From positions 7,521 through 71,520 of the forward strand of contig JAQULO010000002.1 in NCBI GenBank assembly GCA_028718565.1: 64,000 bases of DNA. Direction: 5' to 3'. This document shows, in pieces, positions 1 through 64,000 of the stretch (positions are counted from its first letter, which is position 1; each line of letters starts with the position of its first letter). The DNA is from Syntrophales bacterium. GTDB lineage: Bacteria > Desulfobacterota > Syntrophia > Syntrophales > UBA2210. The translations under genes were made by a program, and so were the position numbers. Under the pieces are notes generated by a model that was not told where the DNA came from, made no database searches, and was given only the letters and a program-made list of their open reading frames with translations.

Positions 1-235
1 CGGAGATATTTATCGTGTCCGCGCTGAGTCTTTTTGCCGCGATTTCAAAGGACGCTCTTGTCCTGGTGCTTGCCTCGAAGAAGAGGGTAATAACCGTCTT
101 CCCCCTGAGGGTTGGGACCTTCTTGATCGTTCTATTGGATATCTCTTTAAAGGATTCGGCAGTATCGAGTATGAGGTCAATCTCTTCCCGAGAAAGATCC
201 CGTATTCCCAGCATGTCTTTTCTTGATAAGCCCAT
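1..235 (-). CDS. pyrB: aspartate carbamoyltransferase catalytic subunit, N-terminal part (continues beyond the window edge)
   Basis: Own minus-strand translation from the ATG at 235 gives [78 protein letters not shown]. It contains the STRTR carbamoyl-phosphate motif. It is absent from the ORF track because no stop lies in the window. It lies immediately downstream of pyrR. Confidence 0.85.
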
Positions 236-55847: not shown

Positions 55848-57848
55848 CTAGAAACCGATTGAGATTCCTCCCTTAACGGTAATCCCCGGCAGGGGGTAGT
55901 ACCCGCCGTAATTGATGAACGCATGCTTCTCATCGGTCAGATTTTCAACCCCGACGAAAGCTGAAAACCTGCAATTTTCAGTAGGTTCCGGCCTATAGAA
56001 GAGAAACATATCAAACGTTGTATGGCGGTCAATCTTTTCGGCGGTATTGCTGTTGTCTCCACCCTGGTAAGACGTTCCAATGTACTTCATTTCCGGTCGC
56101 AGCTCAAGGTGGCCGGGGAGATAGATCGCCAGCCCGGCGTTGACCATTGTTTTAGGAACAAGGGGAACTGTGTTCCCGGCGTGTGTCCCGTTCCTGAATT
56201 CTGCGTTGTGATACGTAACGTTACCATACAGCTCAGCCCAGTTCTTCAGCACGTACGATATATCGAATTCCGCTCCTTCGTGTCTCGTTTTATCAAGGTT
56301 TTCATTGACCCAGAAGGCGTTTGGAACAATTTCATCCTGCATATCGATTTTGAACAGCGTCAGGCCGATCCTGAGATCCTTTGCCGGGTGGAAAGTTGCC
56401 CCCGCTTCATACGTCACGCCTTTTTCCTTCTCAAGATCTGTCAAAAAACTATCCCACGCGTATCCGTAATAGGATGCCTGCTCATCAAGAAACGGATAAC
56501 GGTAAACCGTCGCATATTTCACAAAAAACTTTGATTTTTCTCCAACCAACCAAGTAAGGGCCGATTCAAAGGCCTCTCCTTGGTGGATCTTTTGTTCGTC
56601 AAAAATCCCTGTCCCATCCGCCTGTGATTCATGCCCCTGGATCTTTGCCCGTTCATGCCGGTATCCGAGGGCCAGAATCAGATCATCAAAAACGTATAAT
56701 TCATCCCTGACATAGAAGCCAAAACTCTCGCGGCACAGCTGGGCGCTGTTTTTTTTTGACATCTTGTCCCGGTCATTGAATCCGTCCTTGTCAACATCTT
56801 CGTAATAGTAATCCAGCCCACACACGAGCTTGTTGTTGTGTCCGAACAGGTCTTTTTCGAAAATATATTTTGGCATGATTCCGTATGTATCTACGTCCAC
56901 AACGGAATATGATAAGAATGATGCATAATCGGCCGTGATATCTTTGCTGCCGTACAGGACGTTGACGCTCAGGATTCCGTGCTCACCGATAAAGGCTTCC
57001 GCCACCAGATTTGCGTTCAGGTAGTCATTTAAACCTTCATCGTCGGGATTACCCGCCTGTCTCCTGTTTTCCTCGTACTGGGTCTTCGTCAGCGAACCGG
57101 GGAGATCGAACTCTGTTTCGTTATATGACAGGCCAAGGGAGACATTCCAAAAGTCATCGGCGTCATAATTGAGATCAATGCCCGCACCACGGGATGAAAA
57201 CCGCGACCGGTCACGATAGCCGAACGTCTTCTGATTCTCCCCATTTAAGGCATAGGTCAATCTGCCCTCGGATCCTGAAATGCCGATTTGCTCATCATGC
57301 AGCCCATAGCTACCTGTTATAATTGAAGCTTCAGCCTTCGGCCTACCAGACCCAGCCTTTGTAATGATATTAATTACACCGGCAACGGCGCCGTCACCGT
57401 AGAGAACGCTTCCGCCCCCCCTGACCACCTCGATCCGTTCGATAGTACCAACAGGAATCTGAAGCCAGTTGACCGATGCCATATCAGGCCTGTTCAATCT
57501 CCTCCCGTCGAGCATGACCAGGGTTTTCCCGTATGGATTATCTCCACCGAAACCGCGCAGATCAATAGATGCCTGCGAAGGATTTCCGCTGTATGTCCTC
57601 ACATTGATGCTTCCCAGCTTTTCAAGGACTTCAACCATACTGGTCGCGCCAGCCTGCTGAATATCTTCTGCTGTTATGAGGGTGACATTAGCGGGAACAT
57701 TCCGGATATCCTCCCGATCCCTTGTCGCTGTCACCACGACCTCCTCCATTGTAACCGTATCTTTTGATCCCTGCGCCTGGGCAGCAGCAGGCGGAACGAC
57801 AAATATCCCCAAGCAAAATACAACAAAGCACCACACAAACCGCTTCAT
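55848..57848 (-). CDS. btuB: TonB-dependent outer-membrane receptor, probable corrinoid receptor
   Basis: Has the signal peptide MKRFVWCFVVFCLGIFVVPPAAAQA, a TonB box (DTVTMEEVVVTAT), a plug and a barrel, and a terminal F. It is preceded by a cobalamin riboswitch. An in-frame upstream ATG at 57950 with a good SD is an alternative start. Confidence 0.85.
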   Translation of the reverse strand: MKRFVWCFVVFCLGIFVVPPAAAQAQGSKDTVTMEEVVVTATRDREDIRNVPANVTLITAEDIQQAGATSMVEVLEKLGSINVRTYSGNPSQASIDLRGFGGDNPYGKTLVMLDGRRLNRPDMASVNWLQIPVGTIERIEVVRGGGSVLYGDGAVAGVINIITKAGSGRPKAEASIITGSYGLHDEQIGISGSEGRLTYALNGENQKTFGYRDRSRFSSRGAGIDLNYDADDFWNVSLGLSYNETEFDLPGSLTKTQYEENRRQAGNPDDEGLNDYLNANLVAEAFIGEHGILSVNVLYGSKDITADYASFLSYSVVDVDTYGIMPKYIFEKDLFGHNNKLVCGLDYYYEDVDKDGFNDRDKMSKKNSAQLCRESFGFYVRDELYVFDDLILALGYRHERAKIQGHESQADGTGIFDEQKIHQGEAFESALTWLVGEKSKFFVKYATVYRYPFLDEQASYYGYAWDSFLTDLEKEKGVTYEAGATFHPAKDLRIGLTLFKIDMQDEIVPNAFWVNENLDKTRHEGAEFDISYVLKNWAELYGNVTYHNAEFRNGTHAGNTVPLVPKTMVNAGLAIYLPGHLELRPEMKYIGTSYQGGDNSNTAEKIDRHTTFDMFLFYRPEPTENCRFSAFVGVENLTDEKHAFINYGGYYPLPGITVKGGISIGF

Positions 57849-57988
57849 CTCACGGATTTCCCCTGTGAGTCTAACCCCCTTGCCACACCGGGCGTCGTAT
57901 CCTCCGGTGTGCCCGCCCCCGTACGGGTGCCTTTCCGTACCTCTCTTCATGACAATCTCCTTTCCCCTCGGTCGGGAATTATTTTTTA

Positions 57989-58150
57989 CCTGTCAGGCAA
58001 GTCTCCTGGCTCGCGGCTATGCCTACTCCCCACGCCTTCCCGGCCCCCACCATTCAGGGGGTCAGTGGCACCATGCGGGTTTCGTTCCGCCTACAGTTGC
58101 GGGGCAGCGCCGGCTTCCGACCGGCTTTCTTGACCCGACAGGGTTGAACC
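57989..58150 (-). promoter_or_regulatory. cobalamin riboswitch (internal, upstream of the TonB-dependent receptor)
   Basis: The minus strand shows CUGCCCCGCAACUGUAGGCGGAACGAAACCC, GCCACUG, GGGAAGGCG and the B12 box GAGCCAGGAGACUUGCC. Its 5' part overlaps the last 60 nt of the ATPase ORF. Confidence 0.85.
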
Positions 58151-58927
58151 CAACAATGTTATTCTCGGCAATCCGTTCAACGGATTGGCATCAACTAGGA
58201 CATCCGTCTCATATACCTCTCTGATGTTCGATTTGGTGATAACCTCACCCGGTGCTCCCAGACTGTGGATGCGCCCCTCCTTCAGCAACATAACCCGGTC
58301 ACAATAAGCCGCCGCGAGGTTTATGTCGTGGGTCACGGCGATAACCGTCAGTCCCTTCTCTCTGTTTAGTCTCTTCATCAGACCAAAAAATTCCATCTGA
58401 TGTTTTATGTCCAGAAACGCTGTCGGTTCATCGAGGAGGACCACCTCCGGTTCCTGTGCCAAGGCCCTGGCTATAAGGACTCTCTGCCGTTCTCCGCCGC
58501 TCAGGCTGTCCATGCTGCGGTCCGCCAGCGGGAGGGTGTCCGTCATTTCCATCGCCCTGCGTGTTATCTCAAGGTCGCTCTCCCCCTCGAATCTGAGCAT
58601 CCCCAGATGAGGCGATCTCCCCATCATCACGATCTCACGGGCCCTGAAGGAAAATATCATGGGGAAATCCTGGGGCACGACCGCGACAAGCCTGGCGACA
58701 TCTCTCCTCCTCATCCCCCGTATCGCACTCCCGCTTATGCTGACCCCGCCTTTTTCAGGCACAAGAATGCCGTCGATAACCCTGATAAGCGTGGTCTTCC
58801 CCGAACCGTTGGGTCCTATGATGCCCAAAAATTCCCCCCGGCGGACCTGAAAGGAGATTTCCCTCAGTGCCCGGATGTCTTTATAGCGAAAATCGATGTT
58901 CGCCACTTTTATAATGGGCACGGTCAC
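58091..58927 (-). CDS. btuD: ABC transporter ATP-binding protein (FecE/BtuD type)
   Basis: Has Walker A (GPNGSGKTT), the signature LSGGERQR, and Walker B (LLDEPT). The start was taken as the GTG at 58927, overlapping the permease stop (ATGTGA). The 443-aa ORF in the track is an upstream over-extension. Confidence 0.88.
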   Translation of the reverse strand: MTVPIIKVANIDFRYKDIRALREISFQVRRGEFLGIIGPNGSGKTTLIRVIDGILVPEKGGVSISGSAIRGMRRRDVARLVAVVPQDFPMIFSFRAREIVMMGRSPHLGMLRFEGESDLEITRRAMEMTDTLPLADRSMDSLSGGERQRVLIARALAQEPEVVLLDEPTAFLDIKHQMEFFGLMKRLNREKGLTVIAVTHDINLAAAYCDRVMLLKEGRIHSLGAPGEVITKSNIREVYETDVLVDANPLNGLPRITLLGSTLSGQESRSEAGAAPQL

Positions 58928-59949
58928 ATCCTCCTCGTTCGCAGGAGATAAACAAAGTACGGCGCCCCACACAGCGCCGTGATCACGCCGACCGGCAGTT
59001 CCATGCCGGAGAACACCACACGGGCAACCGTGTCGGCCAGAACCATGAAGGACGCGCCAAAGAGGAAGGATGCCGGCAACAGTAGCCGGTGATCCGTTCC
59101 CAGCGCCATTCTCATCATATGGGGGATGACCAGACCGACGAAACCTATCATGCCGGCAAAAGACACGGCGACGGCGGTTATAAGCGAACCGGTAAAAAAG
59201 AGAACAATCTTTGTCCTCTTCACATCCACGCCGAGCTGCATGGCGGTCTCCTCGCCGGTAACGATCAGGTTCAGCGGCCTGGCGTAGCAGTACACGACGC
59301 CGGCCCCCGCTGCCAGAAGGATGCCCATCAGGACGATCTTTTCCCCGTCGGCAAGACTCATGTCCCCCATCAGCCAGAAGGTGATGGTGTGCAGATCGGC
59401 GCTTGAGCTGGTGGAGATACAAAACATGATGACCGCCGAAAAGAAGGCGTTGACGATGACTCCGGCGAGGAGAAGGGTATTGGAATCGACCCCCCCCCCC
59501 CTGCTCCCGATCAGAAAGACCAGCGCAACCGTGAGGACCGCGCCCAGGAAGGCGAGTGCGGGAATACCGAAAGGGACCGCTGCCGCGCCGAGCAGTATAC
59601 CGATGATTGCCCCCACGGCGGAGCCGCCTGAGACCCCCAGTATATACGGGTCAGCCAGGGGATTTCTGAGAAGCGCCTGAAACACGACTCCTGCGGTGGA
59701 GAGGGCCGCACCGACAATGCCGGCAAAGATGACCCTCGGCAGGCGGATCGAAAAGAGGATCGTCTGTTCAGAAGATTCTAGGGAAAGATGGCCTTCACGC
59801 CACCCGGATACAATAGTCCTAAACACCTTGGCGACACCGATACCGGCCGTTCCGGTCAGAATAGACACACCACCCACAACCACAAAAAGGATGGCCAGGA
59901 GCGCACTGACCCTGGCTATCCTCGACGGGGTAATAACTGACTTTTCCAT
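58924..59949 (-). CDS. btuC: FecCD-family ABC permease (BtuC type)
   Basis: Has about 9-10 TM segments and a typical FecCD C-terminus (GVITALCGAPYFVYLL). The start was set to the ATG at 59949. Confidence 0.88.
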   Translation of the reverse strand: MEKSVITPSRIARVSALLAILFVVVGGVSILTGTAGIGVAKVFRTIVSGWREGHLSLESSEQTILFSIRLPRVIFAGIVGAALSTAGVVFQALLRNPLADPYILGVSGGSAVGAIIGILLGAAAVPFGIPALAFLGAVLTVALVFLIGSRGGGVDSNTLLLAGVIVNAFFSAVIMFCISTSSSADLHTITFWLMGDMSLADGEKIVLMGILLAAGAGVVYCYARPLNLIVTGEETAMQLGVDVKRTKIVLFFTGSLITAVAVSFAGMIGFVGLVIPHMMRMALGTDHRLLLPASFLFGASFMVLADTVARVVFSGMELPVGVITALCGAPYFVYLLRTRRM

Positions 59950-60060
59950 GATAAATCCTTGCAACAAAGCGAGGACACGGCACTATCGCGACAGGTCGGA
60001 ACAGTAAAGCTCTTTGACCAGTTTTCAGGATGGTAACAAGGGGAACCCACTTCGCGACAC

Positions 60061-60226
60061 GCCTCCCTCGAGGATCTGCGGGCGGACCGGTCTTCCGGCT
60101 TAGGGCACAGCCTACTCACCCGCCTTCCCATCCCGACTGTATCGGAACAGTGGCTGTTTCGGGTTTTCGTTCCCTTCACGGCTGCGGGGCAGCGGGGGGT
60201 TTTCACCCCTCTTCCTCACATCCACC
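60061..60226 (-). promoter_or_regulatory. cobalamin riboswitch (upstream of btuC-btuD)
   Basis: The minus strand shows GGUGAAAACCCC, GCCCCGCAGCCGUGAAGGGAACGAAAACCC, GCCACUG (60148..60154), GGGAAGGCGG and the B12 box AAGCCGGAAGACCGGUCC. Confidence 0.88.
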
Positions 60227-60244
60227 CGTGTATTGACGGATGCT

Positions 60245-63170: not shown

Positions 63171-63424
63171 GGAAAAATACGTGCCGGAAATACAGAACCC
63201 CTCCTCTGTGTTAAAAACGGGGTTCGGTTACAAAACATTTCCGCCGTAAGCAGTTGTTGTGAGGAGATGTTGCAACACGATTGCGGCAAATCGTAAGGGA
63301 TATTTACGCCGAATAGTTACAAATTTTTTTATACCGCGCTTGACAGGATTTTGGAAATATGCTCGGATGCTTGGGGGAATTGCTGACTAAATTTCCAAAA
63401 AAATACAAGGAGGGATATCTCGCT

Positions 63425-63961
63425 ATGACAATCGAATATCTTGATCCGAGGTCCGAACCCGGCCTTCCGGCTGACCCATATGATCTGAAGATCGACGTGA
63501 CAAGACCCGGCCTGACGATTGGACTGTTGGCCAATGGATTCCCCGATTCAGTAATTTTCCTCAATGAGGTGGGCGTTGCGTTAAAGAAGCGTCTGCCGGG
63601 AATTCGTTTGCAGACATTTGATAAGGGAAATCCTACCGCCGTTGCCGATGATTCCATGCTTGATGCCATGACCGCCGGCTGTCAGGCTGTTGTTGCGGCC
63701 TACGGACATTGAGGCAGTTGCACTTCCGGCACCGTGCGTGACGGCATTAATCTGGCCAGGCGGGGGATCCCCACTGTTTGTTTACTTACCGATAAGTTCA
63801 GCGACCAGGCTGATTTTGTTTCCCGGGCTGCAGGAATGCCCGATATGCCGAGAGTGATTCTTCCCCATCCTGTAGCAGGGTCAGGATTTGAGAGGATACG
63901 CCAGGTCGCCGGTGACATAATTGAGCAGGTCGTGACATCGCTAAAAGGGGGTGGCAAATGA
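63425..63961 (+). CDS. UGSC-motif selenoprotein (in-frame UGA at 63710..63712 read as selenocysteine)
   Basis: ORFs 63359..63712 and 63734..63961 share one frame with no other stop between them. The joined product reads ...AVVAAYGH-U-GSCTSGTVRDGINLARRGIPTV..., with a UxxC redox-type motif. The start was set to the ATG at 63425, after AAGGAGG. Confidence 0.7.
63713..63745 (+). promoter_or_regulatory. candidate bacterial SECIS stem-loop
   Basis: 13 nt after the UGA lies CCGGCAC (63726..63732), loop CGUGC, then GUGACGG (63738..63744), with one internal mismatch. The GU-containing apical loop sits about 21-25 nt from the UGA, as in known bacterial SECIS elements. Confidence 0.45.
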
Positions 63962-64000
63962 CATTATCAAAAAGACTGCGTTCCGTTGATGCAGATCAAG
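63958..64000 (+). CDS. 5' end of an unidentified ORF (runs off the window)
   Basis: The ATG overlaps the selenoprotein stop (ATGA). It translates as MTLSKRLRSVDADQ..., too short to classify. Confidence 0.3.
   Translation, partial: MTLSKRLRSVDADQ

Follow-up and report, generated by a model that had tools for sequence, protein, structure and literature searches.

UGSC proteins have been in the literature since 2007-2008, so a gene of this kind is in itself no surprise. A "UGSC-containing protein" was first noted in 2007 (PMC1976440), and the ocean survey of Zhang and Gladyshev in 2008 counted UGSC as one of the five selenoprotein families of highest abundance, with 255 Sec against 21 Cys forms in the GOS data and no function assigned (PMC2398784). 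The same survey saw a downstream domain fused to UGSC, which was called 'Unknown_1', and suggested a thioredoxin-like fold (PMC2398784). Reviews from 2022 and 2026 still treat UGSC as uncharacterised, and we found no assignment of function in the literature for what is one of the most abundant selenoprotein families. A culturable carrier cited in reviews is Hyphomonas neptunium (ABI76733.1). What is new in this work is a corrected gene model, an obligate partner that belongs to no described family, a predicted flavodoxin-like fold, and a sharply defined SECIS consensus. The partner, the fold and a near-invariant 15-mer should make the family easier to test.

Two other groups of selenoproteins invite comparison. 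Selenoproteins of thioredoxin fold with a UxxC or CxxU motif (thioredoxin-like, peroxiredoxin-like, DsbA-like) share with UGSC a redox motif at a helix N-terminus in which Sec and Cys are two residues apart, but differ from its predicted architecture of five parallel beta-alpha units. In GrdB/PrdB (PF07355), a selenoprotein subunit acts with a separately encoded substrate-binding subunit, and PrdB is listed with a U-x-x-C motif. The analogy is one of how the systems work, and the two-part enzyme that we propose below would resemble them in logic, not in ancestry. A resemblance of UGSC itself to GrdB/PrdB was considered and set aside, as PF07355 matched neither the window protein (E up to 0.1) nor its Cys homologue P0002 (E up to 10); no Grd or Prd gene was found near UGSC.

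The window, that is the whole 64,000-nucleotide stretch of DNA analysed here, comes from a landfill metagenome-assembled genome (MAG) of an anaerobic member of the Syntrophales (Thermodesulfobacteriota). Near its 3' end, positions 63425-63961 of the forward strand form a single frame of 178 codons with one in-frame TGA at 63710-63712 (codon 96). The first-pass annotation had noticed that the list of open reading frames splits the gene at this TGA and that both pieces share a frame. Translation agrees, the TGA being the sole internal stop up to 63959-63961, and it also recovers the proposed junction AAYGH-U-GSCTSG (in longer form ...AVVAAYGH*GSCTSGTVRD...), with its U-x-x-C arrangement as U96-G-S-C99. 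Taken overall, the best explanation of these data is very probably one intact UGSC-family selenoprotein gene in Syntrophales, a reading that rests on sequence comparison. In the annotation, two ORF fragments should become one merged selenoprotein gene. The features of the locus are as follows.

63407..63414, forward strand: ribosome-binding site AAGGAGGG, 10 nt ahead of the start codon, by direct reading of the sequence
63425-63427, forward strand: start codon ATG, supported by homologues beginning MTIEYLDP
63425..63961, forward strand: putative gene for a UGSC-family selenoprotein of 178 aa, residue 96 being Sec, from the translation, the PF24696 and NF041046 matches and the homologue alignment
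63710..63712, forward strand: in-frame UGA, read as Sec (U96) on the alternation of Cys and TGA among loci and on homologue fragments that end here
63719..63721, forward strand: codon of Cys99, the presumed resolving Cys of U-x-x-C, invariant in the family alignment
63726..63744, forward strand: putative SECIS hairpin of 3 bp, a G.A mismatch, 3 bp and loop CGUGC, from the minimum free energy (MFE) structure of a 25-mer, pairing and covariation, and codon freezing
63959-63961, forward strand: stop codon TGA of the UGSC gene
63958..64000, forward strand: start of the partner gene (358 aa, MDD5722266.1), of which the window contains the first 14 codons, with an ATGA overlap with the UGSC stop

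Two antisense ORFs overlap the gene on the reverse strand, at 63304-63669 (121 aa) and 63700-63957 (85 aa). Comparable antisense ORFs group together between loci, but this reflects nothing more than conservation of the sense gene, and they are thus shadow ORFs.

Family membership was assessed by profile scoring of the window protein with U replaced by C. The Pfam profile PF24696 "UGSC family" scores 147.8 bits against a gathering threshold of 25, matching residues 25-174 of 178 to profile positions 22-171 of 172, so that a single match spans the TGA. The NCBIfam equivalog NF041046 scores 113.1 bits (E = 1.1e-32, profile positions 2-146 of 147), which is below its curated cut-off of 125 bits; the NCBI rule would hence not name the protein automatically, but the relationship is still clear. 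Its name, 'UGSC family (seleno)protein', is the one given in the first-pass annotation, which was correct on this point. The family motif is also present, with U/C-G-S-C inside a conserved AYGH-x-GSCTS in which G97, S98, C99 and T100 are invariant. The member described here resembles the known UGSC family in its domain, its AYGH-U-GSCTSG motif, its alternation of Sec and Cys and its downstream domain, and in the fact that Sec forms outnumber Cys forms, here as in the 2008 GOS data. It differs from the known family in its distance from other members, with 51-58% identity to the nearest sequences found and a score under the NCBIfam cut-off, and in its source, an anaerobic landfill Syntrophales and not marine or freshwater plankton.

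Homologues are informative on the internal TGA itself. A search of 5.8 billion proteins returned 120, about 85 of which are fragments of ~97 aa that all end in ...AYGH, at exactly the TGA codon. Among the ~33 full-length homologues, all but one read AYGH-C-GSCTSG; the exception (P0001) has W, probably because its TGA was translated under another genetic code. The suggestion that Cys might align opposite U was thus borne out for all but one of the full-length proteins, most of the others ending at that position. In eight genome loci, the codon at the Sec position is TGC in seven and TGA in one, the latter in an Acidimicrobiales MAG whose protein is 58% identical to that of the window. The downstream half, which had been singled out as a place to look for conservation, is 52-64% identical to homologues as against 49-58% before the TGA, and contains all but one of the seven residues that never vary in the family alignment (G97, S98, C99, T100, P147 and P149). 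A metagenome scan with a degenerate pattern that stopped short of the hairpin gave 120 loci, of which 118 proved to be UGSC genes carrying TGA in this context. Searching 1.84 billion representatives with a profile yielded 3,408 UGSC clusters. Where genes had been called on Sec-form homologues, the callers split them at the TGA in all three loci examined.

Downstream of the TGA, a hairpin with a GU-containing loop had been proposed at a distance of 13 nt, and it is found there at 63726-63744. It consists of CCGGCAC (63726-63732), the loop CGUGC (63733-63737) and GUGACGG (63738-63744), contains one G.A mismatch, and has its loop starting 20 nt past the UGA. Thermodynamics was rejected as evidence for this element, as the minimal hairpin (-5.4 kcal/mol for the MFE of the 25-mer, z = 0.22) and its wider 81-nt context (z = +1.14) do no better than shuffles. 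Unlike its energy, the comparative evidence for the hairpin goes far beyond chance in the sequences aligned here. Codons +5 to +10 after the UGA (T/S-G-T-V-R-D) are frozen as ACC GGC ACC GTG CGT GAC, a single codon being used in 97-100% of 110 distinct Sec forms, whereas the commonest codon at other invariant residues of the Sec forms (G-2, A+15, G+18, V+22, L+24, G+33) reaches only 36-47%. The exact 15-mer GGCACCGTGCGTGAC occurs in 97 of 101 Sec forms and in none of seven Cys forms, and the hairpin overlies a 15-nt stretch with synonymous-site conservation in Sec forms only. Constraint at the RNA level is accordingly seen in Sec forms and not in Cys forms. Across 101 sequences, 99.3% of the cells of the stem are paired, and covariation is seen at the two outer pairs, where C-G is replaced by U-A in five cases and by G-C in one; none of 500 shuffles attained the observed score. 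An alternative hairpin joining +10..14 with +25..29 after the UGA is equally well paired, but shows no covariation and leaves unexplained why third positions are frozen at +30 and +33; it was discarded. On this comparative evidence, the UGA is very probably a Sec codon served by a hairpin conserved within the coding sequence.

The element can be compared with the SECIS of the E. coli fdhF type, as captured in the bSECISearch consensus (PMC13188914). Both are coding-sequence hairpins just after the UGA with an apical loop of 5 nt that has G and U, in this order, as its positions 2-3, and the distance of 20 nt from UGA to loop lies in the range of 16-37 nt. The published bacterial criteria (PMC13188914) ask for a loop of 3-9 nt with a G in the first two loop positions and spacing of 16-37 nt, and the loop CGUGC (5 nt, G at position 2 followed by U) agrees with them. 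They also ask for an upper stem of 4-16 bp and an MFE of -7.5 kcal/mol or lower, against which the window element has a short stem (3 bp, G.A, 3 bp) and, as a minimal hairpin, a weaker energy of -5.4 kcal/mol; a value of -9.5 is reached only with a poorly supported lower stem over variable columns. Rfam gave no match on 63680-63790 at E up to 10 and, at gathering thresholds, nothing but two B12 riboswitches; none of its models corresponds to this element. Besides, the near-invariant 15-mer GGCACCGUGCGUGAC can be used to find members of the UGSC family and to annotate them correctly.

Three readings would remove Sec from residue 96. The TGA could be a true stop, leaving a pseudogene or a pair of separate short genes (95 aa and 75 aa), as gene callers indeed split the locus in public data and no Sec machinery is seen within the window. 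Such a reading leaves unexplained why more than 100 diverged loci are split at the identical codon, for which full-length homologues have Cys, why one Pfam match crosses it, why the half beyond it is 52-64% identical to homologues with its invariant residues kept, and why conservation at the RNA level follows just 3' of it; we regard it as very improbable. The source being a metagenome assembly of low depth (about 3x word depth), an error that turned TGC or TGT into TGA also deserves attention, but here the sequence is independently confirmed. A Logan contig (L129) matches window positions 63607-64000 without a difference over 394 nt. Landfill metagenomes of two studies also contain the stretch, and a contig of a separate landfill-metagenome study from 2018 covers 63455-63887, TGA included, with no internal difference. 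As the SECIS motif that is restricted to Sec forms is moreover intact at this locus, an error seems extremely improbable. Finally, TGA could be reassigned genome-wide to Trp or Gly (codes 4 and 25), as the database homologue with W at position 96 would have it, so that residue 96 would not be Sec. Against this, TGA terminates seven of the 24 Pfam-validated genes of the window, the UGSC gene among them; it is thus an ordinary stop there and the genetic code is standard. Syntrophales are not known to use codes 4 or 25, and we consider the chance of a reassignment next to negligible.

As to the Sec machinery, selA, selB, selD and tRNA-Sec were found neither in the 64-kb window, which carries no tRNA gene at all, nor in the 4.9-kb extension provided by the Logan contig. 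A scan of the window for other in-frame TGA codons gave only adjacent genes that share a frame by chance. In a different assembly (GCA_021773835.1, L131:5477-11599), the same strand continues, 3' of the UGSC gene and its partner, with a methyltransferase gene, selA, selB and tRNA-Sec (anticodon tca), so that the selenoprotein there sits beside Sec machinery.

The gene that overlaps the UGSC stop as ATGA, with its ATG at 63958, had been put forward as a functional partner lying just outside the window. It could be identified as MDD5722266.1, a protein of 358 aa deposited as "hypothetical protein PHY29_00855 [Syntrophales bacterium]". The Logan contig continues window positions 63958-64000 and carries the whole gene at L129:352-1428, and the database protein P0172 starts with the same 14 residues as the window's partner. 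A partner homologue lies directly 3' of UGSC on the same strand in all eight genome loci, and in 97 of 97 Sec-form loci with enough room, where it starts from -30 to +28 nt relative to the UGSC stop. Looked at from the partner side, a split UGSC gene stands immediately upstream in all three long contigs inspected, L131 among them. The order of UGSC and then a ~360-aa partner gene holds in all 108 loci examined, and the overlapping ORF is thus a real and constant neighbour, the functional link being a proposal. In addition, the profile search of 1.84 billion representatives retrieved several fusions of 528-563 aa with UGSC at the N-terminus. In one of them (P0273), the partner domain shares 39% identity with the window's partner; the fusions are very probably the "UGSC/Unknown_1 fusion" of Zhang and Gladyshev 2008. 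By comparison of loci, UGSC and its partner are established as a fixed genetic unit, and the constant, sometimes fused partner is a reason to study the two as a pair. One fusion, P0372 (556 aa), reads GHCGASSSW, the second (resolving) Cys of the motif being lost; P0360 has CGNC. ARAGORN reports a tRNA-Leu at L132:6698-6790 (reverse strand) and a tRNA-Ala at L001:8843-8924 (forward strand) inside partner coding sequences, both probably false positives.

The partner family counts more than 7,600 database members of ~55-60% identity across phyla, with no Pfam domain, no NCBIfam match and no name beyond "hypothetical". The partner has no sequence relative in the PDB and does not match the Gly_reductase and PrdA profiles. 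T34, T105, N139, R144, D162 and E178 are the polar residues that stay invariant in partner domains, whether standalone or fused, and a Lys is near-invariant; in the sequences at hand, this set of Arg, Asn, Asp, Glu, Thr and Lys suggests an anionic small-molecule substrate. None of the cysteines is invariant and only C77 is near-invariant in both forms, which argues against an Fe-S site. An Fe-S hydro-lyase with C24, C77 and C350 as ligands was indeed examined and rejected, since C24 is replaced in 10 of 10 aligned fusion partner domains and hhalign against class I fumarate hydratase gives a probability of 0.2. The N-terminal G-C-T-D-G was also considered as a self-processing or pyruvoyl site, an idea for which no Ntn-like fold match was obtained; at position 25, every aligned sequence has Thr or Ser except P0351, which has Val.

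The UGSC fold was predicted with AF2 on P0002, a Cys homologue that shares 50% identity with the window protein, from a 32-sequence alignment (pLDDT 92.7, pTM 0.89). The model displays five parallel beta-alpha units and, among PDB entries, comes closest to the flavodoxin-like domains of flavodiiron proteins (E = 2e-4, TM 0.43-0.47). The best 50 matches include flavodoxin-like and other alpha/beta domains instead of any redoxin of thioredoxin fold, and the model lacks the beta-alpha-beta-alpha-beta-beta-alpha order of that fold. UGSC is thus predicted to be flavodoxin-like and not thioredoxin-like as proposed in 2008. In this predicted model, the U/C-x-x-C motif runs from the end of strand 3 to the N-terminus of helix 3, amid other invariant residues. 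For the partner, the model of P0172 (pLDDT 83.3, pTM 0.86) has class I fumarate hydratases as best PDB matches, with E = 6e-5 but a TM of only 0.23-0.28, followed by Toblerone-fold cyclic amide hydrolases at E about 0.15. Profile comparison of the partner with class I fumarate hydratases shows no relation. In four marine loci (L016, L017, L055 and L084), the gene immediately after the pair, about 1.3 kb past the UGA, encodes a class I (Fe-S) fumarate hydratase. It is of the same class as the partner's weak best fold match, which may be a coincidence.

How the pair might work can be outlined from sequence comparison. A ribosome reaching the UGA at codon 96 would find the hairpin at 63726-63744 serving as a bacterial SECIS, which would recruit SelB with Sec-tRNA and so allow Sec to be inserted at residue 96. 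Translation would then go on to 63959-61 and be coupled to the partner gene through the ATGA overlap. In the pair, the partner would bind the substrate and UGSC would act as the redox-active small subunit. The selenolate of U96 may attack the substrate, or else a partner-bound oxidised group, after which C99 would resolve the adduct to a selenenylsulfide that cellular thiol reductants recycle. The label of a typical redox selenoprotein given to UGSC in the first-pass annotation is plausible.

On the strength of adjacency and fusion, we tentatively suggest that UGSC and the ~360-aa partner form a two-part enzyme, with UGSC as its small, redox-active subunit. With similar caution, we regard it as possible that UGSC and its neighbour make up an undescribed two-subunit, sometimes fused selenoenzyme, in which UGSC would give the nucleophile and a catalytic partner would bring a new fold, in the models faintly like class I fumarate hydratase and Toblerone-fold hydrolases. 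The main functional rival keeps the selenoprotein but makes it a free-standing thiol-disulfide redoxin, an antioxidant or general reductant, with the downstream gene as a neighbour or client only. A U-x-x-C at a helix N-terminus would suit such a role, and the literature places UGSC among thioredoxin-like redox proteins, but the predicted fold is flavodoxin-like, partner adjacency is invariable and fusions recur. The invariant residues beyond the redox pair (N37, D106, P147 and P149) suggest besides a more specific site than a general reductant would have, and we hold the free redoxin to be unlikely. Should the pair of UGSC and partner prove to be a new selenoenzyme, the finding would gain weight.

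The rest of the window is an ordinary anaerobe chromosome, with genes for SecD, anaerobic ribonucleotide reductase, ilv functions, sigma-54 regulators and queuosine. An SDR gene lies just 5' of UGSC, and the neighbourhood beyond the UGSC-partner pair is not conserved. The wider neighbourhood was therefore discarded as a clue to function: recurrence of SDRs, family III CoA-transferases, alpha/beta hydrolases and FMO-like enzymes is confined to individual lineages. On the 3' side of the partner, the Logan contig holds a 125-aa ORF (L129:1648-2025) that matches only the AAA+ lid domain of sigma-54 activators and may be a gene remnant, followed by convergent genes for a methylmalonyl-CoA-mutase-like protein and a protein of metallo-beta-lactamase fold. 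Finally, the two cobalamin riboswitches, at 57979-58153 (91 bits) and 60068-60240 (75 bits), both on the reverse strand, lie upstream of a TonB-dependent receptor gene (55848-57950) and of genes for a FecCD-type permease and an ABC ATPase (58091-59967), an arrangement that suggests a locus for B12 uptake controlled by both riboswitches.
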